DNA of 64,000 nt from Rhodothermales bacterium (GCA_965214485.1 CBDCBW010000010.1:130594-194593); one strand, 5' to 3'. Positions 23,671 to 40,158 are shown, counted from the first letter of the stretch. The notes: generated by a model not told the origin, from the letters alone. A program made the numbers and translations.

Positions 23671-23731
23671 TGTCGCGGTCTCGCTCGTGCGCGGCCCCCC
23701 GGCCGTCAGCCCCTCGCTGTGCTCAACGGTC

Positions 23732-23781
23732 CGACGGCCCCTCCCCACAGCGTAGGGAGAAGTGTTTGGAGTGCCCGTTTG
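23732..23781. repeat. Dispersed intergenic element, copy C (second half only)
   Basis: cgacggcccctccccacagcgtagggagaagtgtttggagtgcccgtttg matches the second half of 13102-13195. It lies between the two response-regulator copies. Confidence 0.6.
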
Positions 23782-24303: not shown

Positions 24304-25029
24304 ATGCCCGTCCCTTCTCTCCATTCCGCCGCCACGGCCGCGAAGCGGGCCCCGATCCGCGTCATCGCCGTCGACGACCACCCGGCCATCCGCGAGGCCA
24401 TCGCCGACACCATCCGCGCCCAGCCCGGACTCGAACTCTGCGGCGTCGCCGGCAGCGCCACCGACGCCTTCGACCTCGTGCGCGAGACCCAGCCCGACGT
24501 CGCCGTCATCGACATCTCGCTCGGCGACGCCCACGGCCTCGACCTGGTGCAGAACCTCCGCGCCCAGCACCGCTCGCTCGAGGTCGTCGTCTTCTCGATG
24601 TACGACGAGGAGGTCTACGCCGAGCGCGCCATCCGCGCCGGTGCCCGGGGCTACGTCATGAAGAGCGAGCCGACCCAGAGCGTCGCCGAGGCGATCCGGT
24701 GCGCGGCCTCGGGCGAGATCTACCTCAACCGCCGCGCCGCCAGCCGGATCCTGTCGAAGGTCGCCGCCGGGCACACCGGTGCCGGGCGCACCGGCGAGGC
24801 GGCGCCGGGGCTCGAGGACCTGACGGACCGGGAGATGGCGGTCTTCCAGATGCTCGGGCAGGGTCGCCCGACCGAGGAGATCGCCGAGCGGCTGAACCTG
24901 AGCCGCAAGACGGTCGAGACCTACCGGCGGCGGGCGAAGGAGAAGCTGGGCTTCGAGACGGTGACCGAACTCCTCCAGTTCGCCATACGGTGGGAGCAGA
25001 GCCAGACCAGCCCGCGCTCGGACTCGTAG
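24304..25029 (+). CDS. NarL/LuxR-family response regulator, copy 2
   Basis: Identical to copy 1 except for the N-terminal about 25 aa and the last about 12 aa. Start chosen at the ATG at 24304 (MPVPSLHSAATAAKRAPIRVIAVDDH); the track ORF begins at the GTG at 24247. Confidence 0.8.
   Translation: MPVPSLHSAATAAKRAPIRVIAVDDHPAIREAIADTIRAQPGLELCGVAGSATDAFDLVRETQPDVAVIDISLGDAHGLDLVQNLRAQHRSLEVVVFSMYDEEVYAERAIRAGARGYVMKSEPTQSVAEAIRCAASGEIYLNRRAASRILSKVAAGHTGAGRTGEAAPGLEDLTDREMAVFQMLGQGRPTEEIAERLNLSRKTVETYRRRAKEKLGFETVTELLQFAIRWEQSQTSPRSDS
24370..24993 (+). repeat. Second copy of the 624-bp identical block
   Basis: See 23020-23643. Confidence 0.9.
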
Positions 25030-25103: not shown

Positions 25104-26231
25104 CTAGTCGGTCTCGGGGAGGTAGAGCTCTGCCGTCCGGCGCGCGGCGGAGTAGGCCCCGTACCGCAGCCCGCCTGCGACGCCGTCCTGCGCCAGCACG
25201 TTGAGCCGCACCCGGTCCCAGTACGGCTCGACCTTCATGTGAGCCTGTTTCGGAAGCCGCTCCAGCAGGTCGTGCCCCAGCGTTCTCACGCGGTGGTCGC
25301 GGCGGATGTCGTCCCGGACGTGCTTCGGCAGCGGAGCCGCCAGGAGGTCAGCGGCGAGCAACAGGCCGAGCCGGAGGATGCGGCGGCTGCGCATCGCGCC
25401 CATCCGGTCGTAGACGGCGTGCCAGTCCAGGCCGGGGTAGGCGCGGACGAGCTCGGCGACGTCGCAGATGTACTTGAACCGGTCCCACCGATTCTTCAGG
25501 CCGTGGTAGCACAGCACCTGGAGGAGGTCCTCCGTGCCCAGCGTGCGCACGTCGCGCCCGGCGATGGGCACCGTCACCGAGCGCGCGAGGAGGGCGTCGA
25601 AGCTCTCCGAGTACCGGTAGCCCGGCGGCATTATGGCCGTGTGCACGTCGATGAAAGCCTGCGCTTCGCCGAGGCTGTGGATGCGCCGCCAGAACGTGTA
25701 TTGGCCGTTGAGGTAGAGATAGCTCGCCTTCCGAAACGGGGTCAGCGGCTTGGACCCGTAGCCTTCGCGGGCCAGCATCCGGTCGAGCCGGTCGAAGTCC
25801 TCGCGCCGGACGACCAGGTCGATGTCGACGAACGGGCGGGCGGCGATGCCTCCGTAGACGCTCTGCGCAAGCACGGCCCCTTTGACGGCGAGCGTCGGGA
25901 AGGCCTCGCGCTCGAACACCTCGGACAGGCGCCCGAGCTCCTGCATCAGGATGAGGCTGTGGGCCGAGCGCGCCCCGACGACCCCGCGCAGCCACGTCAT
26001 GTGCGGCTCCGAGAGGAGGGCGTCGTCCATCTCGCGCAGGTGGCAGTAGAGGAGCGGCTGCACGCCGTGGTAGCCGGCCAGCGTGACGAGGTAGCCCCAC
26101 TGCAGATCGTCGTCGCGGAGGTGGTGCGCGACCTGTTCGGCATGGGACGGCTCGAGCTCCGTCCGGCAGCAGAGCCGCATGATGTTGTATTCGGGGCGGG
26201 AGCCGGCCTCGTCGGGGTGAATCGTAGCCAT
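25104..26231 (-). CDS. Uncharacterised nucleotidyltransferase family protein (NTP_transf_5-like)
   Basis: Start at the ATG at 26231 (MATIHPDEAGS...). The protein has PFVDIDLVVRREDFDRLDRMLAREGY and the overall helical N-domain typical of the PF14907-type family that often accompanies lasso-peptide/HPr-kinase-like clusters. Confidence 0.6.
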   Translation of the reverse strand: MATIHPDEAGSRPEYNIMRLCCRTELEPSHAEQVAHHLRDDDLQWGYLVTLAGYHGVQPLLYCHLREMDDALLSEPHMTWLRGVVGARSAHSLILMQELGRLSEVFEREAFPTLAVKGAVLAQSVYGGIAARPFVDIDLVVRREDFDRLDRMLAREGYGSKPLTPFRKASYLYLNGQYTFWRRIHSLGEAQAFIDVHTAIMPPGYRYSESFDALLARSVTVPIAGRDVRTLGTEDLLQVLCYHGLKNRWDRFKYICDVAELVRAYPGLDWHAVYDRMGAMRSRRILRLGLLLAADLLAAPLPKHVRDDIRRDHRVRTLGHDLLERLPKQAHMKVEPYWDRVRLNVLAQDGVAGGLRYGAYSAARRTAELYLPETD

Positions 26232-26240
26232 CAATCTCTC

Positions 26241-26292
26241 GTCATCAGAAGGGTGCCTCTTGTCCTCGGACCTCGTGTCATCAGAAGGGTGC
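26241..26292 (-). promoter_or_regulatory. Two 16-bp direct repeats in the promoter/5' region of the nucleotidyltransferase gene
   Basis: gtcatcagaagggtgc occurs at 26241-26256 and 26277-26292 (36-bp spacing). An AT-rich stretch follows, with TTGACG on the minus strand (attattgacgtgc) just upstream. Confidence 0.45.
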
Positions 26293-26461
26293 ACGTCAAT
26301 AATTCAGAACACACCGGTAGGCCTGACCGGGGCACAGCCGCCGCCGGAGGCATCGCGCGGCGAGCAGAGAGGCTGAGCGCGAGAAGGGGGTTCCGGCAGC
26401 GGGCGTCGGGGCAGTAAGATATCGCATGTTGTCCAACTTGCCTAAGGCTCCGCCAGCGCGC

Positions 26462-27598
26462 TCAGGGCTCGGACGGCCTCCGTGCAGCCTGAGCCGATGG
26501 CTTCAGCACCAGCTCGGCGATGACCGCCCGGTGGTCGGAAACCAGGTCGGGGTCCACGCGCGCGCGCCGGACCACCCAGTCGTCGCTGGCGAGCACGTAG
26601 TCGATGCGGACGAGGGGTAGGCCCGCCGGGAACGTCCCGCCCCAGCCCGTCCCGGCCTCGTCGAAGGCGTCCCGAAAGCCGTGCGCGAGGTGGGTGTAGG
26701 CCCAGTTCCGCGGCGTGCTGTTGAAGTCGCCGCACACGAGGAACGGGTGGGGCTCCGCGTCGAGCATCGCGCGTAGCTGGCGGGCCTGCTCGGCCCGGAC
26801 CTCGAAGTCGCGGCCGTAGGCGTGGAAGGCATCGAGCCAGGCGCGCGGCGAGAACCGCTGGTCCTCCCGCCGCCACGGGCGCTGGCTGCTGAACGAGTGG
26901 AGGTGCACGTTGTAGACCATGATGGTCCGGCCCTGCCACCGGTAGGCGCGGCGCGTGATGCCGCCGGAGCTCCACAGCCCCTCCGGGGGGTTGCCCCGCA
27001 CCAACTCGCTTCGCCCCACCGCCTCGATGCGCGAGAAGAGGGGCCGCGAGAACATGAAGTCCTTGCCGCCATCGGGCCGCGACATCTCGTAGGCTTTGTC
27101 CTTGAGCAGCGGGCCGAGCAGCGGCGCGCCCCAGGTCACGCCGGTGTCGCGGAGCAGGCGGATCGAGAACTCCTGGAGCGCGATGAGGTGGGGGCGGTCG
27201 CGCGCCAGCACGTTGGCGAGGACGTGCTGCTTGCCGCCGCCGTCCTTGCCTGCGTTGAACGTCATCACCGTGAGGCCGGGCGCGTCGGCGGCGGCGGTCG
27301 CGGGGTCAGCGCTGGCGTTCAGCTCCGGCATGAGCACGGTGGCGAGGCAGAGGAGGAGGTGAAGCGCAGCGAGAGCCCAGCGCCGCTTCACGATGAGACC
27401 GACGGCTACGAGCGCCGCCGCGACGAGAACAAGCGTGCCGAAGATGGCGACGACCTGGAGGCCCCAGAGCTGCTCCGGCGGCACGAAGGGGGCCGCGTTC
27501 GCCGCCGCGAGGAGGCCGACGAGCGCGGCGTCTGCCCCCCAGAGAAGCCATCGCCCCCTCCGGGACGGCGGGCGCTTCGGAACCGCTTCGGTCGTCAT
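26462..27598 (-). CDS. Membrane-anchored endonuclease/exonuclease/phosphatase (EEP) family protein
   Basis: 378 aa with about three N-terminal TM helices. The EEP motifs are VMTFN, IALQEF, VYNVHL, CGDFNSTP, RIDYVL and SDHRAV. The start overlaps the upstream stop (ATGA at 27595-27598). Confidence 0.75.
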   Translation of the reverse strand: MTTEAVPKRPPSRRGRWLLWGADAALVGLLAAANAAPFVPPEQLWGLQVVAIFGTLVLVAAALVAVGLIVKRRWALAALHLLLCLATVLMPELNASADPATAAADAPGLTVMTFNAGKDGGGKQHVLANVLARDRPHLIALQEFSIRLLRDTGVTWGAPLLGPLLKDKAYEMSRPDGGKDFMFSRPLFSRIEAVGRSELVRGNPPEGLWSSGGITRRAYRWQGRTIMVYNVHLHSFSSQRPWRREDQRFSPRAWLDAFHAYGRDFEVRAEQARQLRAMLDAEPHPFLVCGDFNSTPRNWAYTHLAHGFRDAFDEAGTGWGGTFPAGLPLVRIDYVLASDDWVVRRARVDPDLVSDHRAVIAELVLKPSAQAARRPSEP

Positions 27599-28503
27599 GC
27601 CGGAATGTAGAACCGCATCAGGACGAGGACGAAGGCGGCCACGTAGAGCGCCGGGGCGTACCGGAAGGTCTCACGCTCGCACTGCATGATCCCCATCGCC
27701 ACGATGAGCCACGCGAAGTACAGGATCGGCGCGACGACGTAGGTCGAGAAGACGAACGCCAGCAGCACCGCGTCGCGCCACTTCGCCAGCCAGAACCTCC
27801 TCGGGAGCAGAAAGGCCACGGCCACGGCTCCCTCGATGGCGAGCGTCCACCACGTCATCAGCGCGGCGAGCCAGCGCGCCTCCGCCGCCAACGGCACCGC
27901 GAGCGCCCCCGCCGGATCGCCGAAGGCGGTGTAGACCACCCGCTCAAGGCGCGCCCGCGCCAGCACCCCGGCGTCGAGCCCGACGAGGTGCTCGGCGAAC
28001 AGCCCGAAGCGCGTGTCCTGAAGCAGGAAGTAGTTGAAGAACGCGCCGCTCACGTAGTCCGGCGAGAGCACCTTCCACAGCGTGGCGAACAGGAAGCACA
28101 GCCCGATGAGCACGCGGGCGTTCACCCGCACCGCCTTCAACGGCTCCACCGCGAGGAGCGAGACGCCGAGGCCGAGGCACCAGTAGAGCTTGAGGAAGTC
28201 GTGGTTGTTCTGCTGGTGCCACGTCTGCCAATAGGCGAGCACGAGCACCCCCACGAGCCCGAGCCACAGCAGCGGGTTGCGCATGAGCGGCCGGAGCACG
28301 AGCGCCGTCACCGTGAGCGTGGTGAGGCCGAGCTGGATGTGCCACGCCGGCTCGTGCAGCGAGAGCACGATCATCACGAGCGTCATCGCCGCCCCGAGCT
28401 CGAACAGGTCGGCCCCGAGGAGCGCATCGACGGGCCGGCGGGCGAGCGTACGCAGCCGGCTCGGTGGTCGAGGGTGCACAGGGGAGAGGGGGGCGGAGTC
28501 CAT
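27595..28503 (-). CDS. Polytopic membrane protein, HTTM / vitamin-K-dependent gamma-carboxylase-like membrane domain
   Basis: 302 aa with about 8 hydrophobic helices. WHQQNNHDFLKLYW resembles the WNNHSYLYGLL motif of GGCX. LWKVLSPDYVSGAFF resembles GVKKLDADWVEGYSM around the catalytic Lys. MTWWTLAIEGAVAVAFLLP resembles VHWGGLLLDLSAGFLLF. The comparison is from a recalled human GGCX sequence, not a search. Confidence 0.45.
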   Translation of the reverse strand: MDSAPLSPVHPRPPSRLRTLARRPVDALLGADLFELGAAMTLVMIVLSLHEPAWHIQLGLTTLTVTALVLRPLMRNPLLWLGLVGVLVLAYWQTWHQQNNHDFLKLYWCLGLGVSLLAVEPLKAVRVNARVLIGLCFLFATLWKVLSPDYVSGAFFNYFLLQDTRFGLFAEHLVGLDAGVLARARLERVVYTAFGDPAGALAVPLAAEARWLAALMTWWTLAIEGAVAVAFLLPRRFWLAKWRDAVLLAFVFSTYVVAPILYFAWLIVAMGIMQCERETFRYAPALYVAAFVLVLMRFYIPA

Positions 28504-28509
28504 AGGGTG

Positions 28510-29118
28510 CTACTCGGCAGCGCTCGGTTGCACCGTCGCCTCGGCGATGCGCTCCCAGCGAAGCAGCTCGGCGTCGGGGTCGAAGACGGGCCTCCAGACC
28601 TCGACGCGCGCGCCCTCGACCTCGGCGTCGGTCGGGAGGCCGTTGTAGGGCGCGCGGCGCGGGTCGAAGGCCAGGTGGCTGGGGTAGAGACCGGAGGCAT
28701 CGACCGACGCCGAGTCCGCCCACGCCGCCTGCCACGCCTCGGAGGTGCGGAAGTAGTGCTGGAGGAAGTCCGGCAGCGACGGCCAGACCGTGCGGTACGT
28801 CGAGGCGTCGTAGACCCGCCAGTCCTGCGCGGCGACGGTGCGCGCCGCCGCCTCGAGGCGGGCCTGCGTCGGCTGCGTGTAGACCAGGCGCGTCTTGACC
28901 CCGAAGCGGGGCTCGACGACGAGCGCCTCGCCCCGGTCCGTCAGCACGTAGGCGCGGAGGGCGCGGGCCCCGGGCACGTCCACGGTCGAGAACATCCCGA
29001 AGCCGCCGCCGGCCCACTGTGTCTGGCCGTGGACCTCGACGTTGTAGCGCTGCAGCGCCACGCCGGCGATCAGCACGATGGGGGCGAGTCCGTAGGCGAG
29101 CCGCTGCGGGAGTCTCAT
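28510..29118 (-). CDS. Single-pass membrane/exported protein, resembles the start of the extracytoplasmic domain of HTTM/VKGC-family proteins
   Basis: Start at the ATG at 29118 (MRLPQRLAYGLAPIVLIAGVALQ), overlapping the ABC exporter stop (ATGA). GGGFGMFSTVDVPGARALRAYVLTDRGE resembles the GYSWDMMVHS...VKITYRDGRTGE segment that follows the membrane domain in GGCX. Otherwise there is no recognisable motif. Confidence 0.35.
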   Translation of the reverse strand: MRLPQRLAYGLAPIVLIAGVALQRYNVEVHGQTQWAGGGFGMFSTVDVPGARALRAYVLTDRGEALVVEPRFGVKTRLVYTQPTQARLEAAARTVAAQDWRVYDASTYRTVWPSLPDFLQHYFRTSEAWQAAWADSASVDASGLYPSHLAFDPRRAPYNGLPTDAEVEGARVEVWRPVFDPDAELLRWERIAEATVQPSAAE

Positions 29119-31025
29119 CGCGGTACGGCGGTGGGGTCCGGAGCAGGGGTCACCTCGGCGGTCTCGTCCCCGGCCTGCCCGTCGCCGACGATGGGCTCCG
29201 CCGTGCCGTCCTCCTGCCGCATCTGCGCCCGCCACGACGCCGCGTACCGCCCGCCGAGGGCAATCAGCTCGTCGTGCGTGCCGGTCTCGACGACCTGCCC
29301 GGCGTCCATGACGTGGATAATGTCGGCCTGCATCGCAGTCGTGAAGCGGTGGGTGATGAGGAGCGCCGTCCGGCCCTCGACCATCCGGCGGAACCGCGCC
29401 AGCCACTCGTTCTCGGCCCACGAGTCCATCGAGCTCGTCGGCTCGTCGAGCACGACGATCGGGGCTTGGCGGAAGAAGGCCCGCGCGAGCGCGACCCGCT
29501 GCCACTCGCCGCCGCTCAGCTCGCTCCCCGTCTCGAACCACCGCCCGAGGACCGAGTCGTACTTCCGGGGCAGCTTCTCGATGACCTCGTGCGCCCCCCC
29601 GCCGACGGCTGCCGCCTGCACGGCGTCGAGATCGACCTCGCGGCCGAGGTCGCCGAGGCGGATGTTGTCCTCGGCCGTCATCTGGTACTTCATCGGGACC
29701 TGGAACATCACCGAGACGTGGCGGCGCAGGTCGGTCTGCGCGAACTCCCGCAGGTCGATGCCGTCGACCGTGATGCGCCCGGCGGTCGGGTCATAGAACC
29801 GGCAGAGGAGCTTGATGAAGGTGCTCTTCCCCGCCCCGTTCTCGCCGACGATGGCGACGATCTTGCCCGACGGGATCGTGAGGTTGAAGCCTTCGAGCGC
29901 CTTCCGCTCGAAACCGGGATAGCTGAACGAGACGTCCTCGAACCGGACGCCCTCGTCGATCCGGTCGGGAAATGGGGTGGGCGTTGCCGGCTCGGCGAGG
30001 CCGTTCTCCTGGTCGAGGAAGTCGAAGAGGTGTTCGAGGAAGAGCGTGTTGGTGTAGACCTGTCCCATGTTCTGGAGCAGCCCGCCGACGAGCGCCTGCC
30101 CCTGGTTGAACGCCTGGTAGAAGAGCGCGAGGTCCCCCAGCGTGGCCGCGCCGCGCGTCGCCCGGAGCACGACCCACAGCATCGCCCCGCCGGTGGCAAT
30201 GAGGCCCATGAAGGTGGCGAAGATGCGCGCGACGACCTGGTTCTTGAGCAGCTTCAGGCGCTCCTCCCGAAGGGCCCGGCGCAGCGCGAGGTAGCGGCTG
30301 CGGAAGTACTCGCCGGTGTTGTTGATCCGCACCTCGGCCGCCGACGCATCGAAGGTCACCATCAGGTCGAAGTACTGCGCGAGGCGGCGGCGGGCCGTCG
30401 AGGCCTTCCACCACGCATGGTACTTCTTGTTGTGACGGACGACGACGAAGAACGCCGGCAGCGTGCTGACGATGAGCACGAGGGGCAGCCACAGGCTGTA
30501 GCTCAGCAGGATCGCCGAGATCGAGAGCAGCGTCACGGTCGCGCTGAGCAGCCCGCCGATGTTGCCGAGGAGCTGCAGCACCCGGCTGTTGGCCTGCGAG
30601 TTGACCTGCTCGAGCTTGTCGTGGTAGTCCGCCGACTCGTAGAAGCCGAAGTCCACCTCGGTCGCTTTCTCGTGGACGAGGGCCTTGACTCGGTCCCCGA
30701 CGAGCTCCGCCTGCGCGGTCGAGACCCACTCGTTGATCCCGCCGAGGACGCGCTGCAGAATCATGACCCCGCCCATCAGCGCCGCCGGAGCGATCACCAC
30801 CGCCAGCGCAGCCTCGCCCGCGACCGCCGCCGCGAGGCTATCGACGAGCCACTTCGTGAGGTAGACCACCGCCGCCGGCAGCGTCCCCTGCACGGCCAGG
30901 AGGAGGAACCACACCACGGTCCACCGGCTCGCCGCCGACCAGATCAGCCGGAGCGCCATCCCCACGTAGGACGCCCGCAGCCGGAGGTCGTCGGCCTTGT
31001 GCCGCCACGTCTGCGTTGCCGTCAT
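29115..31025 (-). CDS. ABC exporter, fused permease + ATPase (lasso-peptide D-type transporter)
   Basis: 636 aa with a six-helix TMD. The NBD has Walker A GENGAGKSTF, signature LSGGEWQRV and Walker B IVVLDEPTS. It sits inside the lasso operon. Confidence 0.85.
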   Translation of the reverse strand: MTATQTWRHKADDLRLRASYVGMALRLIWSAASRWTVVWFLLLAVQGTLPAAVVYLTKWLVDSLAAAVAGEAALAVVIAPAALMGGVMILQRVLGGINEWVSTAQAELVGDRVKALVHEKATEVDFGFYESADYHDKLEQVNSQANSRVLQLLGNIGGLLSATVTLLSISAILLSYSLWLPLVLIVSTLPAFFVVVRHNKKYHAWWKASTARRRLAQYFDLMVTFDASAAEVRINNTGEYFRSRYLALRRALREERLKLLKNQVVARIFATFMGLIATGGAMLWVVLRATRGAATLGDLALFYQAFNQGQALVGGLLQNMGQVYTNTLFLEHLFDFLDQENGLAEPATPTPFPDRIDEGVRFEDVSFSYPGFERKALEGFNLTIPSGKIVAIVGENGAGKSTFIKLLCRFYDPTAGRITVDGIDLREFAQTDLRRHVSVMFQVPMKYQMTAEDNIRLGDLGREVDLDAVQAAAVGGGAHEVIEKLPRKYDSVLGRWFETGSELSGGEWQRVALARAFFRQAPIVVLDEPTSSMDSWAENEWLARFRRMVEGRTALLITHRFTTAMQADIIHVMDAGQVVETGTHDELIALGGRYAASWRAQMRQEDGTAEPIVGDGQAGDETAEVTPAPDPTAVPR

Positions 31026-31053
31026 CGGATTGCATTCTCAGCCAACCCGGAGG

Positions 31054-31962
31054 CTAGCTGTGTGTGGGGACCGCATCGAGGTCTGCCTCGACCAGAGCGA
31101 AGATGTCGGGCAGGGCATCGAGAGACATGATACGCTCCAGAAGCGCCACCGGCGTGTGCTTGGCGAGCTGGGCGCACTGCTTGAAGTGCTCGGAGACGTA
31201 CTCGGGGGCGGTGATCCAGTTCGTCGAGTGCGTGTGGGCGACGAGGTGCATCGGCACCTCCTGCGTGCCGAGCTGCGTGACCCGGTTCGCCTCCGAGGTC
31301 TGCCGCCGCAGCACGTAGAGCTTCGACAGAGGTATCGACCGCACGTCCTCCCCCTTTAGAAGGCGCAGCCGCTTGGGCGAAATCTCGGTGACGAGCGGCA
31401 GGCTTTCGTGGTCCTCGACGAGCCGCTCGGCGGAGTTCGGGCGGAGGCGGACCTGTTTGATGCCCGGCGGGACGCGCGTCGGCTCGGTCTCCGTGCCGGG
31501 GAGCACCACCATCACGTCGTCCGTGATGAGCTCGTAGCCGTTCTGGCAGAAGTACTCGGCGAGGGTCGACTTGCCCCACCCGGAGTTGCCCAAAAACGCG
31601 ACCGCCCGCTCGCCGTCCGACACCGCCGAGCCGTGCAGCACGAGGAGGTGGCGCTGCCTGAGCGCCGCCGCGAGCAGCGCGCCCTGCACGAAGCTGCGGA
31701 GGAGGTCCTCCGAGATCGGCTTCAGCGTGTCGTAGGTGACGACCCTGCCCGCGTTGAGGTGGAAGAGGAGGTCGAGGTCCCACTCGTCTTCCTTGATGTG
31801 CCCGGAGACCACGTCCCCGTAGCGCGCGTCGGCAGCGCTCTTGCGCACGCGGAGGTTGCCTTTTTGGATCGTGACGTCGGGCGGACCGTCGTCGCCGGGT
31901 GCGAAGCCGGAGAGCTCGATGTCGGAGTGGATGGAGAGTCCGAAAGCCTTGTGGCGATGCAT
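31054..31962 (-). CDS. HPr-kinase-C-terminal-domain-like Ser/Thr kinase (lasso-peptide kinase type)
   Basis: Start at the ATG at 31962 (MHRHKAFGLSIHSDIEL). LHGSAVSDGERAVAFLGNSGWGKSTLA is the P-loop context seen in HprK-related kinases of paeninodin-type lasso clusters. Confidence 0.65.
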   Translation of the reverse strand: MHRHKAFGLSIHSDIELSGFAPGDDGPPDVTIQKGNLRVRKSAADARYGDVVSGHIKEDEWDLDLLFHLNAGRVVTYDTLKPISEDLLRSFVQGALLAAALRQRHLLVLHGSAVSDGERAVAFLGNSGWGKSTLAEYFCQNGYELITDDVMVVLPGTETEPTRVPPGIKQVRLRPNSAERLVEDHESLPLVTEISPKRLRLLKGEDVRSIPLSKLYVLRRQTSEANRVTQLGTQEVPMHLVAHTHSTNWITAPEYVSEHFKQCAQLAKHTPVALLERIMSLDALPDIFALVEADLDAVPTHS

Positions 31963-32021
31963 CGTGTGGTGGGCTGCAGGCGGCGGGACCTGGGTTGCAG
32001 AGATGAGAGCACCCCATTCTA

Positions 32022-32057
32022 GCGAAGGCTCCGAGGAATGATCCCCGAAGCCTTCGC
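32022..32057 (-). promoter_or_regulatory. Hairpin downstream of the precursor gene (possible attenuator/stabiliser)
   Basis: gcgaaggct (32022-32030) pairs with agccttcgc (32049-32057) in a 9-bp stem plus 2 further pairs. It lies about 45 nt after the precursor stop and about 60 nt before the kinase start. Confidence 0.4.
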
Positions 32058-32102
32058 CGAGTCGTGCTCCGGCCACCTGGGCCGGTCGTGTAGAGGCGAG
32101 CC

Positions 32103-32288
32103 CTACGGATCGATCATGCACGTTTCCTGGTTGACGGTCGGGCACTGGTCGACCGAGTTGAGTCCTTCCTCGATCACGTTGCCGTCCAGGTCGAACGACT
32201 GATCGCCCGTGAAGGGGTCGCCCAGCGTCGCCGTGATCTCCGCCACATCACCGTAAGCGGTGAGTTGAGGTGCGATATAGGTCTTCAT
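32103..32288 (-). CDS. Lasso-peptide precursor (A), 61 aa
   Basis: MKTYIAPQLTAYGDVAEITA|TLGDPFTGDQSFDLDGNVIEEGLNSVDQCPTVNQETCMIDP. The leader fits the lasso motif YxxPxLx3Gx5Tx exactly (Y4, P7, L9, G13, T19). Asp sits at core position 9. The gene lies between the cyclase and the kinase. The ATG at 32288 is internal to the 102-aa track ORF. Confidence 0.7.
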   Translation of the reverse strand: MKTYIAPQLTAYGDVAEITATLGDPFTGDQSFDLDGNVIEEGLNSVDQCPTVNQETCMIDP

Positions 32289-32490: not shown

Positions 32491-34587
32491 CTAGACCGGC
32501 ATCTCCCCACCTTCCGGTTTCGTGAGCGAGGGGGTACTCTCCGCCGTGTCCACGAATCTCTTCTTTAGCCAGAAAGACAGGGTAGCCACACGGGCGAGCT
32601 GGGCCTGTTCGATGTTGGAAACGTCTTTCCCCCCGCGGTAGAGGCTATCGACCTCGGCTTCGTCCACGTAGGGGCGGAGCGCCCCGAGGTCCGTGATGTG
32701 TTCGTCGAGGAGGCCGCGGTCTTGCTCGTAGAGGCCGCGCTCGAAGTTGGGAGCGAGCCACGCCTTGCCCACGCGCCACTGCACTTTCTTCGGCAGGACG
32801 CCCTCGAGCGCGCGGCGCAGGATGGACCGCGTCCACCCGTCTTTCAGGCTCTGCCCGGGCGGGAGCGCGAGGCAGAACTCGACGAGCCGTTTGTCGAAGA
32901 AGGGGTGACGGATTTCGATGCGGTGTGCTGCGCTGGCGTGGGTGGTGAGCTCGAGCGCCGTTTGGATGCGGGAGCCGTTGAGCAACTGGCGCTGCACGTC
33001 GCGCACCGTCGTTAGCCGAGGCTTCTGGACCTCGAAGGCCTGCAGGCGCTCGGCGACCCCGATGCGTTCGGCAAAGGCGGGGTTCAGCAGCGGCAGGAGC
33101 GGCTCGGGGCGGCGCTCGGCCTTGGGGCCGCTGCGCCAGGCGTCGCGGGCGCGCTGCAAAGCCAGCGGTTGCATCAGCCAGCGCCGGTAGCGCCGGAACA
33201 GCTCGGCGCGCTCAACGCCGAAGAGCCGGTGCGCCGCCGAGGCTTCGCGGACGAACTGCCAGCGCTTGCCCTGCTCGGCGAGACGCTGAAGCCGGGCCAG
33301 CCCGAACCGCTGGAACGCCGTGTTGAGGTTGGCGAAGCTGTCCTCGAAGTTGTGGCGCTGCTCGGTGCTCTGGAACTGCCGCGCCGCAGCCTTGCTCTCG
33401 TGGGCGAACGTCTCCCAGTCCCCAGCCTCCGCTAGCTCCTTGAGATAGAGCAGCCCGTGCCCGACGACGTTGTCCCCGTCGAGGCCATCGAGGAGCACGC
33501 GGACGCCCGCCTTGCGAGCGGCAGCCTTCGCGGCCCACACGAGATGCTGGTTGCCGCTGGCGAGGCCGTCGTCGAGGTAGGTGTACACCTCGTCCAAATT
33601 GGAGAGCGGCCCGAGCTGGTCCCCTCGCACGAAGTGCGGGATGAAATCGCCTTGCTCTAGCACCGCGTCGATGAACGGGCGCTCGTCGCACGTCGCGACG
33701 TCCTCGTAGACGAGCGAGACCGTGTGGAGCGGCTTCCCCTCTTTCTCCAAGAGCCGCGCTGCCACAGCCGTGATCGACGACGAGTCCATCCCCCCACTCA
33801 GTTCAGAGCCGACGGGGAACGCGCTGCGGAGGCGGGCGCGGACGGCCTCGGTGAACAGCTCCCGGAAGCGCGCCTCGTACTCGGCGTCGGAGGCGTCGGG
33901 TGGCACATCGGCCGCCGGGGCCAGCGTGTAGTAGCGCCAGCGCCGCAGCCCGTCCGGGGAGACGGTGAGCGCGTGCGAGGCCGGGAGGCGGAGGACCTCT
34001 TCGTAGATCGTGTTCTCCGGGTCCTCGCGCATGGTCGCGAGGAAATCGGCGAGGCGGACCTCGTTGAGCCGCTCCGGCACCTCGGGTACGGCGAGCAGGG
34101 CTTTGATCTCCGTCCCGCAGGCGAAGTGGCTCCCCTCCCGGTAGTGGTAGTAGAAGGGTCGGATGCCGAAGTGATCGCGCGCGCAGAACAGCCGCTGCGC
34201 CGGGCCGTCCCAAATGGCAAAGGCGAAATCCCCGATGAGATGATCGAGGCAGCCCTCGCCCCACGCCGCGTAGGCGGCCAGAATCAGGTTGCTGTCGGTG
34301 ACGGGCTCCGCCTGGTCGCCGAGCCGCAGCCGGGCGAGCAGCGCGTCCCGGTTGTCGATCCGGGCATCGGCGGTGATGGCGAGCCCCGCCTCGGTCGCCA
34401 ACGGCAGCGCTTCGTGCAGCGATTCCGGCGTGGTGTGGAGCATCCGGTGCCCCAGCCCGATCGGCCCCTCGGCCCACACGCCCGCGCCGTCAGGGCCGCA
34501 GTGCGCCACGGCGTCGCCCATGCGGCGCAGCGCGTCCCGGTCCACGCCGTGACCGTCGAGTCGGTATAGCCCGGTGAGTGCGCTCAC
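32491..34587 (-). CDS. Lasso-peptide cyclase (asparagine-synthetase-like, C protein)
   Basis: Start at the GTG at 34587 (VSALTGLYRLDGHGVD), overlapping the B2 stop (GTGA). There is no N-terminal Cys nucleophile. It has the PP-loop SELSGGMDSS and is 698 aa. The 121 upstream codons of the track ORF overlap B2 out of frame. Confidence 0.8.
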   Translation of the reverse strand: MSALTGLYRLDGHGVDRDALRRMGDAVAHCGPDGAGVWAEGPIGLGHRMLHTTPESLHEALPLATEAGLAITADARIDNRDALLARLRLGDQAEPVTDSNLILAAYAAWGEGCLDHLIGDFAFAIWDGPAQRLFCARDHFGIRPFYYHYREGSHFACGTEIKALLAVPEVPERLNEVRLADFLATMREDPENTIYEEVLRLPASHALTVSPDGLRRWRYYTLAPAADVPPDASDAEYEARFRELFTEAVRARLRSAFPVGSELSGGMDSSSITAVAARLLEKEGKPLHTVSLVYEDVATCDERPFIDAVLEQGDFIPHFVRGDQLGPLSNLDEVYTYLDDGLASGNQHLVWAAKAAARKAGVRVLLDGLDGDNVVGHGLLYLKELAEAGDWETFAHESKAAARQFQSTEQRHNFEDSFANLNTAFQRFGLARLQRLAEQGKRWQFVREASAAHRLFGVERAELFRRYRRWLMQPLALQRARDAWRSGPKAERRPEPLLPLLNPAFAERIGVAERLQAFEVQKPRLTTVRDVQRQLLNGSRIQTALELTTHASAAHRIEIRHPFFDKRLVEFCLALPPGQSLKDGWTRSILRRALEGVLPKKVQWRVGKAWLAPNFERGLYEQDRGLLDEHITDLGALRPYVDEAEVDSLYRGGKDVSNIEQAQLARVATLSFWLKKRFVDTAESTPSLTKPEGGEMPV

Positions 34588-35045
34588 GCGGCGTCCGGGT
34601 GGACCGGGCTCAGCGGCGTGTACCGGACCTGCGACAGCCCTCCCCCGATGACGACGTAGCCGTCGCGCTCGAGCCATGCATGCGCCAGGAGTTTGCGACC
34701 GTCCTTGCTGACGCCGAGGTGAAGCGAGGTTTCGTAGCCGCCCCGCCGCAGCATCCGCTGCGCGACGAGCGCCTGCGTCAGGCACGGCTTGTCGCCCAGC
34801 GTCCGTCGTCCCACCGCCTCCACGGCGGCGACGACGCGCTGCCGGAAGGCTGCCCCCTCTTGGATAGTGACAGGAGCTACCTCTCTTCGCCCTGAACTCG
34901 TTAGACCTGAGCCTGCCAGACGCTGCACCGTGCGATAGGGCAGCACCCACAACCCCACCCGCACCGCCGCTACCAGCGCAAGCGCGTGCAGCAGGAGCAT
35001 CTTGTCCTCCCCGGACCGGTCTAGGAATTTACGAAGGGCTCCCAT
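34584..35045 (-). CDS. Lasso-peptide leader peptidase (B2, transglutaminase-like Cys protease)
   Basis: 153 aa. N-terminal LRKFLDRSGEDKMLLLHALALVAAVRVGLWVLPYRTV, catalytic Cys context KPCLTQALVAQRMLRRGG and His context LLAHAWLERDG are all typical of lasso B2 proteins. Confidence 0.8.
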   Translation of the reverse strand: MGALRKFLDRSGEDKMLLLHALALVAAVRVGLWVLPYRTVQRLAGSGLTSSGRREVAPVTIQEGAAFRQRVVAAVEAVGRRTLGDKPCLTQALVAQRMLRRGGYETSLHLGVSKDGRKLLAHAWLERDGYVVIGGGLSQVRYTPLSPVHPDAA

Positions 35046-35319
35046 CCGTGATCTCGATGAGCTGACGCTGCTCCATCTCGTGCAAAAACGCGAGGAGGTC
35101 TTCCTTCAGCTTACTCTCCTTCACATCGTACTCCTGGAGCAAGGCGTCCATGATGCGTTCCACCGAACGCGGTTTCCGCACGAGGTCGAAGATGCGGGCT
35201 CCTAGCTCGTTCAGGCCGTAATAGCGCCCCGAGTTAGGGTCCAGCACGACGGCCTCTCCACCGAGATCAGCAGCCGTCAAGCCCGGCGTCACTACAACAG
35301 TCGATTGCTCTGTCATCAT
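35029..35319 (-). CDS. PqqD-family RiPP recognition element (lasso B1)
   Basis: GEAVVLDPNSGRYYGLNELGARIFDLV...ERIMDALLQEYDV is the PqqD/RRE pattern. ATG at 35319, with an alternative TTG at 35331. It overlaps the B2 start by 17 nt. Confidence 0.75.
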   Translation of the reverse strand: MMTEQSTVVVTPGLTAADLGGEAVVLDPNSGRYYGLNELGARIFDLVRKPRSVERIMDALLQEYDVKESKLKEDLLAFLHEMEQRQLIEITDGSPS

Positions 35320-35477
35320 GAGCAGGTTCAAGGTGAGTTACCTCCGAAGGGATTTAAGGGCACAGTATAGAGCGCGTCCGACTGAAGTGCCTACGCCCGC
35401 CCGAGATTCTACCGAGCAACGTGCCGTTTTGGTGCCAGCACATCCTGTGCCGTGAGCCTGCCAAGCACCGAGAGTTC

Positions 35478-36758
35478 TCAGGACGCTGCCCCCGACATAT
35501 TGAAGCCCGGTCTCGGACTGAGCCGCTGGCCTCCGTGCTCCTGAGCTTCCTGGATCCTTCCTGCAGCCACCGGCTCCGCAGGAGCATCCTGCTCCACGTC
35601 ATTCTCGAAAGCTGTGGCATACGACGCCAGCTCTACGTGCTCCCGAAGCCGGTCCTCAGTTCCGAGCGAAGGCACCCCGATCGGGTGAACGTCCGGTCCG
35701 ACGTAGCTACGCCGGAGATATTTCAGCCTGTTCAACCCGAGGCCAGCCAAAGCGAGCACGGCAACGACGATTCCGACGCTATAGGCAGCCGAGGTCACGC
35801 TCATCATCACAGCCGCGCCTCCGAACGAAACCGCCACCGCGTAGAGCACCAGCACAGCCTGGCGGTGCGACAGCGTCCGCGTGAGCCGGTGGTGAATGTG
35901 GTCCCGATCCGGCGCGAAGATCGCCTGCTGCCCGAGGAAACGCCGAGCGATGGAGAGCGCCGTGTCGATCAGCGGCAGGCCGAGCACGACGGCCGGGATG
36001 AGCACGGCCAGCCAGGGGTTGGGGTGGCCGGTGCCGGAGAGGCTGTACGTCGCCAGCAGATAGCCCAGGAACAGGCTCCCGGAATCGCCCATGAAGATAG
36101 ACGCCGGGTTGAAGTTGAACAGCAAGAACCCAGCGAGCGCCCCGGTGATGATGAGAGCGATCAGGACGAGGCCCAACTCGCCGTTGAGCCCGAAGATCAG
36201 TCCCAGCGACGCGAAGGCGATCAGCGACACCCCGGCGGCGAGGCCGTCGAGGCCGTCAAGCAGGTTGACGGCGTTGATCACGCCGACGACCCAGAGCAGC
36301 GTCAGCGGCATCGAGATGAGCGCGTGCGTGTAGGGGTCCTCGCCCAGGAACGGTATTCCCGCCAGGTCGATCCGGTACCCGGCGTGCAGCAGGGCGTACG
36401 CGACGAGGAGTTGGACGAGGAACTTGCCCTTGAAGCCGAGGCCCCGGATGTCGTCGTAGAAGCCGGCGGCCACAATCACGAGCGCGCCCACCCACAGAGC
36501 CGACGAGGGGAACTGAACATCGAAGTGCAGCAGGTCCCGGACCGCGTGCAGGTAGGCAAGCCCCACGGCGAACCCAATCGCGATGGCGACGCCGCCAACA
36601 GCCGGGACGATGGCCGCGTGTAGCTTCCGCTGTCCATCCGGGTGGTCAACCCAGTCCCGTTCAATTGCAAGACGCCGTACGACCGGCGTGAGCAGGCCCG
36701 TCGTCCCGAAAGCGACGAAGAAGCCTGTGATGAGGGTGATGAGTACCGAATACTCCAT
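35478..36758 (-). CDS. Polyprenyl-phosphate HexNAc-1-phosphate transferase (MraY/WecA/WbpL family, GT4 superfamily)
   Basis: 426 aa with about 10-11 TM helices and motifs YDDIRGL, NAVNLLDGLDGLA, NPASIFMGDSGSLFLGY and DRDHIHH. It also has an about 90-aa non-membrane C-terminal tail. Confidence 0.8.
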   Translation of the reverse strand: MEYSVLITLITGFFVAFGTTGLLTPVVRRLAIERDWVDHPDGQRKLHAAIVPAVGGVAIAIGFAVGLAYLHAVRDLLHFDVQFPSSALWVGALVIVAAGFYDDIRGLGFKGKFLVQLLVAYALLHAGYRIDLAGIPFLGEDPYTHALISMPLTLLWVVGVINAVNLLDGLDGLAAGVSLIAFASLGLIFGLNGELGLVLIALIITGALAGFLLFNFNPASIFMGDSGSLFLGYLLATYSLSGTGHPNPWLAVLIPAVVLGLPLIDTALSIARRFLGQQAIFAPDRDHIHHRLTRTLSHRQAVLVLYAVAVSFGGAAVMMSVTSAAYSVGIVVAVLALAGLGLNRLKYLRRSYVGPDVHPIGVPSLGTEDRLREHVELASYATAFENDVEQDAPAEPVAAGRIQEAQEHGGQRLSPRPGFNMSGAAS

Positions 36759-37156: not shown

Positions 37157-37651
37157 CTAATTGAACACTGAATAGAGGCGGAGGCCGAGCAGAGTCAGAC
37201 TCGCTAGTTCAGAGGCTAGCCTGAGCACCTGTCTGTAGTCGAAGGATCTCAAGGCCTGGGTCTCGATGGCGATGGCATCTCCGTCCTGCAGGGTAGGGTA
37301 GGCGTTAGCCTGAACGACCAGCTCTCCGGTCCTCGCCTCGTAGATCACGGTCCGCTCGCCGCCTTGCTCGCGCAGCACGCGCACGGTCTTTCTGACCTCC
37401 ACCTGGTCCGTCTCCCGCTCGAAGAACGAGACGCCGGCCAGGGCAAGAAACTTGTCTAGGGCGACGGATTCCCCAATCACGTAGACGCCGCTCCTCGTGT
37501 CCCCCATCAGTATCACTTCGTTCGTGGCCTCGCCGGGGAGGGCGAAGACGGTGCTGCCGGGATAGGGGACTTCCTGTGCCTTCACTTCTGCGGGGAAAAC
37601 GAGAAGCAGAGTCAGAGCACAGGCGGTGCAGAACGGTGCAAGACGTTTCAT
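37157..37651 (-). CDS. SLBB-domain periplasmic polysaccharide-export-like protein (short Wza-like)
   Basis: Start at the ATG at 37651 gives a signal peptide (MKRLAPFCTACALTLLLVFPAEVKAQ). The SLBB-like pattern is GVYVIGESVALDKFLALAGV ... LQDGDAIAIE. It is shorter than canonical Wza. Confidence 0.45.
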   Translation of the reverse strand: MKRLAPFCTACALTLLLVFPAEVKAQEVPYPGSTVFALPGEATNEVILMGDTRSGVYVIGESVALDKFLALAGVSFFERETDQVEVRKTVRVLREQGGERTVIYEARTGELVVQANAYPTLQDGDAIAIETQALRSFDYRQVLRLASELASLTLLGLRLYSVFN

Positions 37652-37767
37652 GGGCGTCGTAGAGGAGAGGGGGAACATAGCCGTGCGCCGTGTGCATCGG
37701 CCAGCAAGGCGTTACACACGGCGCACAGTGGAAGGGGGCCTAAGCCCTGGAACGGGAATATAACGCG

Positions 37768-40158
37768 CTAGGCCTTCTGGGACCAGCGCGACGGCTTCCA
37801 CCACGGCTCGACGGCCTGCTCGCCAGGGCCGTAGCTGTACTTCGAGTACGGTCCGTAGACCCCGTAGCTGTACTTGTAGCCGTAGGCCAGCGATAGGTCG
37901 AACCGGTTGAGCAGCGTCCCGACGACGTGGGCACCGACATCGGACAGGCGCTCGAGGCTGTGGTCGAGGTCGCCCTCTTTCGTCTTCCCTGCTGCCGCGA
38001 CGATAATCGTCGCGTCGGCCTGAGTCGAAAGAAGGACCGCCTCGGTGGCGGCGAGCACCGGCGGCGTGTCAATGATGATCATGTCGAACTGGCCGCGCAG
38101 CATCTCGAGCACGTCGCGCATCCGCTTCGAGCCGAGCAGCTCCGAGGGGCTTTCTATGAGCGTCGGATCGGGGTCGTCCGTCAGGTCCTGCTCGTCGAAG
38201 CCATTGTCGAGAAGGCCTCCGGCGGGCATGACGTAGAGGTTCTCGTCGAGCGAGCTCTGGAAGGCCTGCAGCGACTGCTCTCCGTCGAGGAGCACCTGCA
38301 CGAGGCCCGGCTCCAGACTGCGCCCGAGCAGCGAGTGCTGCTTCGGACGCCGAAGGTCGGCATCGATCAGCAGCGTCCGGCGCTTGGCCTGCGCCATCGT
38401 CAGCGCGAGGTTGGCCGCCGTCGTGGACTTCCCCTCGGAGGGGGCGGCACTCGTCACGAGAAGCGTCTGGACGATCACGCCGGGCCGGCTGAACTGGATG
38501 GCCGTCCGGAGGTGGCGGTAGGCCTCCGCCGCGGCCGAGAGCGGATCGAGCAGCGTGGTGAGACTCGTCGCCACGTTCATCCCTCGGAACTCGGTCACCT
38601 CGTCGCCGCCGTAGGCCTGTTTGATGTGAGGCTCCATGTTGGGAATCACCCCGATGACGTTCTGGTCCCGGTCGCGGAGCTGGTCCGGTTTGTAGATTCG
38701 GTTGTCGAGCTTGTCGCGCACGAAAGCCAGCGCGATGCCCAGAGCGAGGCCCAGCAGCAGGCCCATCGCTATGGTGTTCCAGCGGCTCGGACCCTCGGGC
38801 AGGCCCGGGACCTGCGCCGCGCGGAGGACGCGAGCGTATCCCGGCTCAGACTCCTGAGCGATCTCCGTTTCCTGAAGGCGCTCGACGACGAAGGAGTACA
38901 TCTGCTCGGCCTGCTGGCGCTGGCGCTCTAGACGAGCCAGGTCCGTGGACTGCCCTGGAATCTGGCTCAGTTCGCCCTGCATCTCTCCGATCCGGCGGTC
39001 CATCAGGTTGATGCGGGCGTCGATGCCGTTCATCGTGATGTCGTCCGATATCATCTGCCGGCTCAGCTCGGCGGCGTAGCTGACGGCGCTGGGGCCCTGA
39101 TCGATGCCGCCCGCTGCCAGCACGTCCTCGACGTAGGTTTCCGAGAGCCGCTGCCTCTCGGCTCGGGCAGCCGACAGCCGTCGGTCGATGACAGCAAGCT
39201 CCTCGGCGCGCTTCTGCTGAGCGGCTGTAGCGTCGGTGCCGATCCCGGCTTCAAAGCTCAGGATCGTCTGCTTCCGGTTCTCGAGGCTGGCGATCTCCTG
39301 CTCGAGGGAGACCAAACGCTGGTCCGTCTCCGAGGTCATGCGCTCGACGAGTTGGGGGCTGATCTGTGCCAGCGCCTCCTCGGTCGTCGCCATCTGTGCC
39401 CGGCGCATCTGCCGGTCGAGCTCTGCGCTCTCGCGCTGTGCCTCGAGGCTGGCGATCTGCGAGACCATGGCTTCACCGGACTGGGTGAGGCCGGCAGCCT
39501 GGTTGGTTTCCATAAAGCGCTGCACCTCGTCCTCGGCGGCGCGCAGCTCTTCCAGACGCTGCTCAGCCTGCTCCTCCAAAAACTCGTAGGTCTGGTCGAG
39601 GTACGTCCGGCTCACGTCCTGCGTCTGGCGGACGTATTCCTCGGCGTAGATGTTCGCCAAGCGCGCGGCCTCCTGCCGGTCCAGGCTCTCCGAGGTCACC
39701 TGAATCGCGTTATCCAGCGTCCGGCTCGCAGGGCCGAACTGGACGCGCCCCGTCGGGGGGTAGTTCACGTCCGGGTCCTCGTCGTTCATCTCCTCCAGCC
39801 GCTGGTAGACCCGGCGGTGGATATTCTGGTCGTTCTGGAGAATGAACAGCTCCGTCACCATGGAGCGGTCGCTGCGGACGAAGGGGGTGCCCGAGGCTTC
39901 CGGGGCACCGCTGCCGCCACTCGGTGCCCGCTGGAGCTCGAGCATGACCAGCGCTCGGGCTTGGTACTCGGGCTCCAGCGTCAGGCTGTAGATAAGCGCA
40001 CCGGTGGTGACGAGTACCAGCGCTACGATGATGATCAGCCGCCGCCGGTAGAGGGTGTCGAGAAGTTGCTCCAGCTGCTTGTTCTTCGTCTGCGAAGGGA
40101 TATACGAGTATCCTCCGGAAGAAGCACTACGCTCGCGGTCGGTCTCAGGAGTTTGCAT
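37768..40158 (-). CDS. wzc: Polysaccharide co-polymerase fused to BY-tyrosine kinase (Wzc/GumC-like)
   Basis: 796 aa with an N-terminal TM segment, a long coiled-coil periplasmic region and a second TM segment. The kinase has Walker A SAAPSEGKSTTAANLA, A' LLIDADLRRP and B IIIDTPPV. The C-terminal Tyr cluster is YGYKYSYGVYGPYSKYSYG. Confidence 0.85.
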   Translation of the reverse strand: MQTPETDRERSASSGGYSYIPSQTKNKQLEQLLDTLYRRRLIIIVALVLVTTGALIYSLTLEPEYQARALVMLELQRAPSGGSGAPEASGTPFVRSDRSMVTELFILQNDQNIHRRVYQRLEEMNDEDPDVNYPPTGRVQFGPASRTLDNAIQVTSESLDRQEAARLANIYAEEYVRQTQDVSRTYLDQTYEFLEEQAEQRLEELRAAEDEVQRFMETNQAAGLTQSGEAMVSQIASLEAQRESAELDRQMRRAQMATTEEALAQISPQLVERMTSETDQRLVSLEQEIASLENRKQTILSFEAGIGTDATAAQQKRAEELAVIDRRLSAARAERQRLSETYVEDVLAAGGIDQGPSAVSYAAELSRQMISDDITMNGIDARINLMDRRIGEMQGELSQIPGQSTDLARLERQRQQAEQMYSFVVERLQETEIAQESEPGYARVLRAAQVPGLPEGPSRWNTIAMGLLLGLALGIALAFVRDKLDNRIYKPDQLRDRDQNVIGVIPNMEPHIKQAYGGDEVTEFRGMNVATSLTTLLDPLSAAAEAYRHLRTAIQFSRPGVIVQTLLVTSAAPSEGKSTTAANLALTMAQAKRRTLLIDADLRRPKQHSLLGRSLEPGLVQVLLDGEQSLQAFQSSLDENLYVMPAGGLLDNGFDEQDLTDDPDPTLIESPSELLGSKRMRDVLEMLRGQFDMIIIDTPPVLAATEAVLLSTQADATIIVAAAGKTKEGDLDHSLERLSDVGAHVVGTLLNRFDLSLAYGYKYSYGVYGPYSKYSYGPGEQAVEPWWKPSRWSQKA

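Follow-up and report, generated by a model that had tools for sequence, protein, structure and literature searches.

A family of long, acidic and strongly conserved predicted lasso peptide precursors in Rhodothermales

The kinases of paeninodin-type lasso peptides and of pseudomycoidin act on the C-terminal Ser of the linear precursor peptide (PMC8498205). In the case of pseudomycoidin, the nucleotidyltransferase PsmN is further required for the placement of one or two hexoses onto the phosphoserine (PMC6993621; reviewed in PMC8498205), and BsfK of Bradymonas sediminis phosphorylates core Ser3 of a precursor that ends in Asp (PMC10368454). Lasso peptides with a tail-tail disulfide, namely LP2006, the felipeptins and pandonodin, constitute class IV (PMC13352647, PMC7549694, PMC7689547). 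According to a 2026 review, the largest characterized lasso peptide is pandonodin, with 33 aa, and the largest loop comprises 20 aa. Here, we describe gene A, found in a 64,000-nt stretch of DNA from a Rhodothermales bacterium (GCA_965214485.1 CBDCBW010000010.1:130594-194593; the window). Coordinates refer to the whole window unless a locus is named (L-numbers denote related loci and P-numbers homologous proteins). Taken as a whole, the reading that A is the lasso peptide precursor of the surrounding B1-B2-C-A-K-D...N cluster, of the kinase/nucleotidyltransferase (paeninodin/pseudomycoidin/Bsf) type, is a probable one.

Two homologues, P0004 and P0093, have already been named 'lasso peptide' automatically in NCBI records, and the cluster is of the kinase/nucleotidyltransferase type; thus, A is not categorically new. 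Its family is a distinct, uncharacterized variant, marked by a 41-residue, nearly invariant and highly acidic core, a predicted non-Gly N-terminus on a nine-residue ring, and a Cys pair of the class IV type. It is also set apart by the absence of a C-terminal Ser despite the presence of K and N, and by dispersed, maintained extra precursor genes in related genomes. A full-text literature search combining 'lasso peptide' and 'Rhodothermales' returned no paper; the family is undescribed in the literature searched, and no characterized lasso peptide from Bacteroidota/Rhodothermales turned up there.

A is a real, conserved gene under purifying selection that carries a lasso leader signature and lies among recognizable maturation genes. 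The gene and the parts of its product are as follows:

32103..32288, minus strand: precursor gene A, 61 codons plus stop (translation, NCBIfam models, homologues, dN/dS)
32229..32288, minus strand: leader peptide MKTYIAPQLTAYGDVAEITA, codons 1-20, with Y4, P7 and L9 as the motif for recognition by the B1 RiPP recognition element (RRE; RiPP, a peptide made by the ribosome and modified after translation) and T19 as Thr(-2)
32106..32228, minus strand: predicted core, codons 21-61, 41 aa
32202..32228, minus strand: predicted nine-residue macrolactam ring TLGDPFTGD, T21 amine to D29 side chain (D29 invariance, ring column identity)
32154..32156, minus strand: Ser45 (core Ser25), candidate phosphorylation site of K (conservation)
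32118..32144, minus strand: Cys49...Cys57 (core 29 and 37), predicted tail-tail disulfide loop of the class IV type (Cys conservation)

Translation of A on the minus strand gives MKTYIAPQLTAYGDVAEITATLGDPFTGDQSFDLDGNVIEEGLNSVDQCPTVNQETCMIDP*, in which Y4, P7, L9, G13 and T19 confirm the statement of the initial annotation, made from the DNA alone, that the leader fits the motif YxxPxLx3Gx5Tx position for position. The remaining factual statements of that annotation also proved correct. Counting residues gave the claimed 41-aa core with nine acidic residues (six Asp and three Glu) and no Lys, Arg or His, and the GC content of A together with its upstream gap (32100-32600) is indeed lower, at 0.58-0.60, than the 0.65-0.75 of the flanking genes. 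Its identification of A as a lasso precursor is backed by two NCBIfam precursor models as well as by the adjoining B1, B2 and cyclase genes. NF033528 (lasso_cyano) matches A at E=2.1e-8 and 34.0 bits (cut-off 33), over only the leader and the first four core residues, and NF033521 (lasso_leader_L3) does so at 21.6 bits (cut-off 19); a Pfam scan found no domain in A.

A search of 5.8 billion proteins returned 27 full-length homologues of 58-70 aa (63-82% identity, E 1e-15 to 1e-27). Among 1.84 billion representative proteins, a profile search for the family gave 55 matches, ~46 of which are peptides of 53-79 aa with the same build; the family has ~45 close and ~45 distant homologues. Against 17 homologous genes, the ratio of non-synonymous to synonymous substitution rates (dN/dS) of A is 0.15-0.42. 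A check for homologous loci lacking the open reading frame (ORF) found it at the same position, between C and K, in every related cluster that was found, so that this refuting condition of the initial annotation does not apply. A Shine-Dalgarno-like GAGG is located at 32298-32301, 9-12 nt 5' of the ATG. A scan for promoter and terminator consensus sequences found nothing near A; neither a second copy in the 64-kb window nor a homologue in the plasmid collection searched was detected.

The maturation, tailoring and export genes that accompany A are the following:

35029..35331, minus strand: B1, PqqD-type RRE leader-binding protein (Pfam PqqD 3.3e-19; lasso_PqqD_Bac 3.3e-20, 72 bits, below the cut-off of 80)
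34584..35045, minus strand: B2, transglutaminase-like leader peptidase (NF033537 lasso_biosyn_B2, 90.9 bits vs a cut-off of 33)
32491..34587, minus strand: C, Asn-synthetase-like lasso cyclase (NF033535 lass_lactam_cya, 760.5 bits vs a cut-off of 525)
31054..31962, minus strand: K, divergent HPr-kinase-related peptide kinase of 302 aa (TIGR04352, Pfam Hpr_kinase_C, PDB 1jb1, catalytic motif)
29115..31025, minus strand: D, fused permease/ATPase ABC exporter (Pfam ABC_tran 9.7e-33, plus ABC_membrane)
25104..26294, minus strand: N, PsmN-type nucleotidyltransferase (Pfam NTP_transf_5, PF14907, 4.4e-52)

The likely start of C is a GTG at 34587, directly after the stop of B2; within the 728-aa reading, the model match begins at residue 32.

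The end of the leader can be placed by conservation. Across 42 diverse family members (alignment A2), the only invariant residues are Y4, P7, T19 and D29, with G13, G23, G36, S45 and C57 conserved in at least 90%; residue 21 varies freely (T, I, V, L, Y, A, F, Q, R or D). Because T19 is invariant while residue 21 is not, T19 rather than T21 is taken as Thr(-2) of the leader, which argues for cleavage after A20 and a nine-residue ring from T21 to D29. D29 is always core position 9 when counted from the residue after T19-x, and cyanobacterial members of the family have the same layout, T-x followed by x8-D. Counting back from the cleavage site that follows from T19 as Thr(-2) puts Tyr, Pro and Leu at -17, -14 and -12, which is the register described as constant in B1 recognition (PMC10368454). 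The invariance of T19 and D29 and this register favor the site that the initial annotation had put first (cleavage after Ala20 with a predicted Thr1-Asp9 ring), making it the better supported option, and disfavor the G1-D7 ring that it had offered as an alternative. B1 would bind Y4, P7 and L9, and B2 would cut after A20, the step of the proposed pathway in which we place the most confidence. In the step ranked second, C would join the T21 amine to the D29 side chain, yielding a nine-residue ring and a 32-residue loop-plus-tail.

Assignment of K draws on several remote similarities. The protein matches TIGR04352 (HprK_rel_A, HprK-related kinase A) at 3e-8, below the cut-off, in addition to HprK-related kinase B and HPr(Ser) kinase; it matches Pfam Hpr_kinase_C (PF07475) at 7.7e-4 and aligns with PDB 1jb1 across the P-loop and the DD pair. 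Its motif H-x14-G-x2-G-x-GKS-x15-DD has spacing identical to that of the catalytic residues of BsfK, whose importance was shown by mutagenesis (PMC10368454). N is conserved in L017, L027, L022 and L024. The occurrence of both K and a PsmN-family N in the cluster leads to the prediction of phosphorylation followed by glycosylation.

None of the homologues of A has a conserved C-terminal Ser, and A itself ends in Pro. The initial annotation had listed this absence among the unusual features of A; the observation stands, but its emphasis requires correction, as BsfK offers a precedent for an internal Ser. Core position 3, the phosphosite of the Bsf type, is Gly in A rather than Ser or Thr. S45, in the context GxxS-x-D-x-C, is invariant in alignments A1 and A3 and, considering also its conservation in A2, is the sole core hydroxyl residue so conserved across the wider family; T51 is invariant in the close family only. 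K would phosphorylate a non-C-terminal Ser or Thr, for which S45 is the best candidate, and we propose S45 as the acceptor only tentatively, with more doubt than conviction; this step stands last in order of confidence. N would then add a hexose to the phosphate, as PsmN does.

Both Cys residues of A (core 29 and 37) lie beyond the ring, with 19 residues separating the ring from the first. C49 and C57 are invariant in 28 close homologues, and C57 is near-invariant in the wider family. Placement of both in the tail, as initially annotated, holds, and the predicted tail-tail topology, which that annotation termed rare, would be that of the recognized class IV. A C49-C57 tail disulfide of this type would form after export by D, a step ranked fourth. 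Ranked third is a β-hairpin that residues 30-41 would form around the DxDGN turn. Such a hairpin in the loop is plausible: an AlphaFold2 (AF2) model of the precursor, of low confidence with a predicted local distance difference test (pLDDT) score of 60, places strands at 30-32 and 38-41, and large proteins from the profile search contain YD-type hairpin repeats to which the segment SFDxDGNVIEEG bears a resemblance. A relationship of the tail (DxDGN...QCPTxNQ) to thrombospondin type-3 or EF-hand calcium repeats was considered and rejected, as a Pfam scan of the tail-matching large proteins found no TSP_3 or EF-hand domain. These proteins carry YD/RHS-like repeats ('YDxRGNVIExAxFGxDGxPT'), and therefore only the resemblance to a β-hairpin was kept; calcium binding by the acidic DxDG segment is speculation. 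The length of the core had likewise been called unusual. This is correct with respect to characterized lasso peptides, all of which are shorter than 41 aa, but not with respect to those predicted by RODEO, which span 12-160 aa; long cores are thus common in silico. A predicted 41-residue product with a loop region of ~20 residues and a disulfide-closed tail would put the limits of both threading and cyclase to the test.

Of the alternatives to this reading, the most substantial concerns the leader, which might comprise 22 residues. B2 would then cut after L22, with T21 as Thr(-2), to release a 39-aa core bearing a seven-residue Gly1-Asp7 ring, GDPFTGD, which would resemble the seven-residue ring of xanthomonin, GGPLAGE. 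Gly is the usual first residue of a lasso core, and the near-invariance of G23 could mark the N-terminus. In the close family, moreover, only T, I or V occurs at residue 21, matching what is reported at -2 for kinase-type clusters, and the NF033521 match covers residues 4-23 over only 18 profile positions, which fits a two-residue insertion before the profile Gly. The conservation of G23 and of residue 21 in the close family is the reason that this option keeps some weight. It is nevertheless unlikely: the wider family also has L, Y, A, F, Q, R or D at residue 21 while T19 is invariant, and a 22-residue leader would shift Tyr, Pro and Leu to -19, -16 and -14, away from the constant register. 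Gly is also absent from position 23 in several members (P0038, P0061, P0069 and P0076), and NF033528 aligns residues 2-24 with profile positions 3-25 at a net indel of zero.

In a second alternative, the Cys-containing C-terminal part would be removed either before or after cyclization, for example after S45, leaving a peptide of ~25 residues with a C-terminal Ser. Core residues 1-25 have the size of characterized lasso peptides, S45 is invariant, the residues after C57 are poorly conserved (0.47), and a C-terminal Ser is what the known kinases other than BsfK require. Such trimming is nonetheless improbable, as residues 46-51 (xxQCPT) and both Cys residues vary little or not at all, a sign that the segment has a function in the product; in addition, no protease gene is conserved in the block, and known kinases act on the uncut precursor, where S45 is internal. 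More remote still is the notion that A, or at least its dispersed copies, represents a small secreted acidic protein that is not a RiPP, or an ORF in a GC-poor gap that arose by chance or is in decay. The lack of a Pfam domain, the protein-like conservation of the core and the orphan copies without biosynthetic neighbors could be read in this way, but A scores above the cut-offs of the NCBIfam lasso models, cluster and orphan copies share the invariant residues of a lasso leader, the gene keeps a constant place between C and K in the clusters, and dN/dS is well below 1, so that we give this explanation hardly any credence. Other points weigh against our own reading of A as a precursor for a kinase/nucleotidyltransferase-type lasso pathway. 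K has diverged strongly and reaches none of the curated cut-offs, and the characterized lasso kinases other than BsfK need a C-terminal Ser. To our knowledge, characterized lasso peptides offer no counterpart to a core that begins with a β-branched residue such as the Thr of A or the Ile or Val of some other members. Threading, ring size, disulfide and phosphorylation in the family are predictions from sequence, the membership of the Wzc-like, GT4, U200, M302 and EEP proteins (described below) in the pathway is proposed from synteny, and the orphan copies are known from related genomes, the 64 kb of the window showing one copy only.

Within the close family, alignment columns have a mean identity of 0.97 in the ring and 0.83 in residues 30-51, compared with 0.69 in the leader and 0.47 in the last ten residues. 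In the distant cluster L017, the counterpart of A shares 74% identity with it, as against 34-50% for B1, B2, C, K, N and the EEP-family protein. Conservation is thus inverted, with ring and loop almost invariant while the enzymes diverge, unlike in antibiotic lasso peptides of the usual type.

Scanning one genome for each species located 16 A-family loci, all in four metagenome-assembled genomes (MAGs) of Rhodothermales/Bacteroidota. Each MAG has one full cluster plus one to five further loci with copies, some of them in tandem; other lineages have two or four tandem copies inside the cluster instead. Within 10 kb of the orphan copies there are no biosynthetic genes, and their neighbors are housekeeping genes: holA with an extracytoplasmic function (ECF) sigma factor, type IX secretion system (T9SS) cargo with a glycosyltransferase, dxr with rseP, and NAD kinase with pepF. 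Their positions are syntenic between genomes, and the orphans are therefore old and maintained. Indeed, they are intact ORFs that retain the leader invariants and the GAGG site, with dN/dS of 0.18-0.42. Given one cluster per genome and the leader signature of the orphans, these dispersed precursors would most likely be matured in trans by that single cluster. Most orphan C-termini (L003, L004, L006, L007, L009, L011 and L012) have the conserved ending C(F/H)FNEG(G/S)xP, whereas the cluster copies end variably and without the extension. Mean core identity is 0.91 within a genome, 0.82 between genomes and 0.84 for syntenic orthologues, with leader identity at 0.70 both within and between genomes. 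This suggests homogenization of the core within genomes, either by gene conversion or by co-evolution with a genome-specific partner.

The orphans include further peculiarities. A divergent one in L012 (15379..15543, minus strand) differs in its Cys spacing (ICSFAC) and carries Val as residue 21. In three MAGs (L005 8858..10186; L006; L011), an ECF-type sigma factor gene is followed ~460 nt downstream, in the same orientation, by the 'alpha' orphan, which thus occupies the usual place of an anti-sigma factor gene. In two MAGs, a paralogous U200/M302 pair (33-43% identity) is located ~7 kb from the alpha orphan (L005 17192..18766 and L006 17044..18651), where it adjoins a GT4-family glycosyltransferase.

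A core that is more conserved than its enzymes and homogenized among paralogues is the opposite of the usual RiPP pattern and points to a constrained partner (a receptor, metal or surface) rather than to an arms-race antibiotic. A bolder interpretation, which we regard as less likely than not, is that the peptide is no conventional antibiotic but a conserved lasso peptide that exceeds 40 residues, is phospho-glycosylated and plays a physiological role, being produced from distributed precursors matured in trans by one cluster, with core and partner co-evolving in each genome. Signaling to the PAS-kinase/LuxR system beside the cluster would be one example of such a role; a calcium-binding surface or exopolysaccharide-associated function would be another. 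If true, no earlier lasso system would combine distributed precursors with a conserved core, and the peptide would surpass every natural lasso peptide in size; dispersed precursors with the leader signature would also be a new genomic organization for lasso peptides. The cluster further provides, after BsfK, a second test case for site choice by lasso kinases, since K and N occur without a C-terminal Ser, and offers a route into the poorly understood chemistry of PsmN.

Beyond the genes already listed, the surroundings of A contain the following features:

32023..32056, minus strand: stem-loop between A and K, CGAAGGCUUCGGGG-AUCA-UUCCUCGGAGCCUUCG, 15 bp (fold energy, conservation)
28510..29118, minus strand: U200 (synteny)
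27595..28503, minus strand: M302, membrane protein (synteny)
26462..27598, minus strand: membrane-anchored EEP-family protein (Pfam 2e-20, synteny)
35478..36758, minus strand: WecA-like glycosyltransferase, GT4 (Pfam/NCBIfam)
37157..37678, minus strand: 173-aa protein (conserved gene order)
37768..40158, minus strand: Wzc-like tyrosine autokinase/chain-length protein (Pfam/NCBIfam)
19723..25029, plus strand: PAS-HisKA_3 histidine kinase (start uncertain) and two LuxR-type response regulators, convergent with N (Pfam)

Together, the Wzc-like, 173-aa and GT4 genes, B1, B2, C, A, K, D, U200, M302, EEP and N form a conserved block of 13 genes, polysaccharide-type genes among them, followed by a convergent LuxR-type two-component regulator with or without the PAS-HisKA_3 kinase. 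This order recurs in L001, L002, L008, L027 and L017, and in L014 from C onward, where the contig ends. U200, M302 and the EEP gene are syntenic in L001, L002, L008, L014, L017 and L027, but only the EEP protein has a Pfam match; U200, M302 and the 173-aa protein gave no Pfam or NCBIfam match even at E=10, and an AF2 single-sequence model of M302 was unusable (pLDDT 48). In the window, the two LuxR-type regulator genes are tandem near-duplicates (22951..23670 and 24247..25029, plus strand), and a response regulator, with or without the kinase, occupies the same place in L017 and L027. This PAS-HisKA_3/LuxR system may regulate the cluster or sense the peptide.

The order of the Wzc-like, 173-aa and GT4 genes beside B1 is kept in L017 and L027, and the flanks of L017 are unrelated and plasmid-like (Rep3, ParA). 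In L017 (1..1371) and L018/L020, the whole block with four tandem precursors is found on a contig of 50-55 kb beside Rep3-family replication and ParA genes, which suggests that the block is plasmid-borne in this lineage. Distant members, from the cyanobacterium Kaiparowitsia and an 8.7-Mb genome, keep B1-B2-C-A-K-D-N, with glycosyltransferase/Wzz genes nearby. The latter genome contains two adjacent kinase-type lasso clusters (L022 7090..19216), one with a 63-aa long-core precursor and the other with a 35-aa precursor, MNSQIKKSYIAPELTTHGNVEEITLQGVFTECRCT, the core of which lacks Asp or Glu at positions 7-9. Just outside the block in the window (40647..43476, plus strand) are genes for a protein with a T9SS C-terminal sorting domain and for an ordinary asparagine-synthase homologue (AsnB, 598 aa), which is not a second lasso cyclase; L001 and L008 likewise have this pair beside the cluster. 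High GC content also creates spurious long ORFs in alternative frames, such as a 331-aa Arg-rich ORF overlapping K (31022..32017, minus strand). Even such shadow frames show 55-60% identity to related loci by tblastn and can lead annotation astray.

Two RNA features accompany the precursor gene. The 116-nt region 31990-32105, which holds the stem-loop between A and K, has a fold energy of -56 kcal/mol (z = -4.5), and no U-run follows the stem. All four close clusters (L001, L002, L008 and L014) contain this hairpin, and the distant L017 and L027 have different, even stronger hairpins in the same place. Attenuator or stabilizer elements are often found after RiPP precursor genes, and the stem-loop, which fits this pattern, is probably an intercistronic attenuator or stabilizer. 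A further, smaller hairpin in the 5' untranslated region (32324-32346, minus strand), CCUACGGGG...CCUCGUAGG-like, occurs in the cluster copies of A and shows two compensatory pairs among six loci, with A-U to G-C changes; it could be an RNA element or a protein-binding palindrome.

Among known systems, pseudomycoidin (Bacillus pseudomycoides psmCAKB1B2ND; PMC6993621) shares with the A cluster both an HPr-kinase-like K and an NTP_transf_5-type N, and the predicted chemistry is alike, namely phosphorylation and then addition of a hexose to the phosphate. The acceptor in pseudomycoidin is, however, the C-terminal Ser, where A has Pro, and gene order, phylum and core length (41 aa in A) differ as well. 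BsfA/BsfK of Bradymonas sediminis (PMC10368454) is also a kinase-type system whose precursor lacks a C-terminal Ser and whose kinase acts on an internal Ser, and it further shares the spacing of the kinase motif and the YxxPxL register of the leader. It differs in having Ile(-2), a Gly1-Asp8 ring and a phosphosite, Ser3, inside the ring, whereas A has Thr(-2), a predicted Thr1-Asp9 ring and Gly3. Paeninodin and the related phosphorylated lasso peptides of Firmicutes and Proteobacteria (PMC8498205) likewise have an HPr-kinase homologue encoded beside the precursor, but are defined by their C-terminal Ser and have much shorter cores without Cys. Pandonodin, LP2006 and the felipeptins resemble A in their single Cys pair in the tail; these class IV peptides are products of Proteobacteria or Actinobacteria, with neither kinase nor N genes, and even pandonodin, with 33 aa and an 18-aa tail, falls short of the core of A. 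Both A and its cyclase are reached by existing NCBIfam models (NF033528 and NF033535), which imply no knowledge of the product. Finally, the prochlorosins are lanthipeptides with many dispersed precursors that are matured by one enzyme and have hypervariable cores. They belong to another RiPP class and share with the A family the combination of one enzyme set and scattered precursors, whereas the cores of the A family are nearly invariant and look homogenized in each genome.

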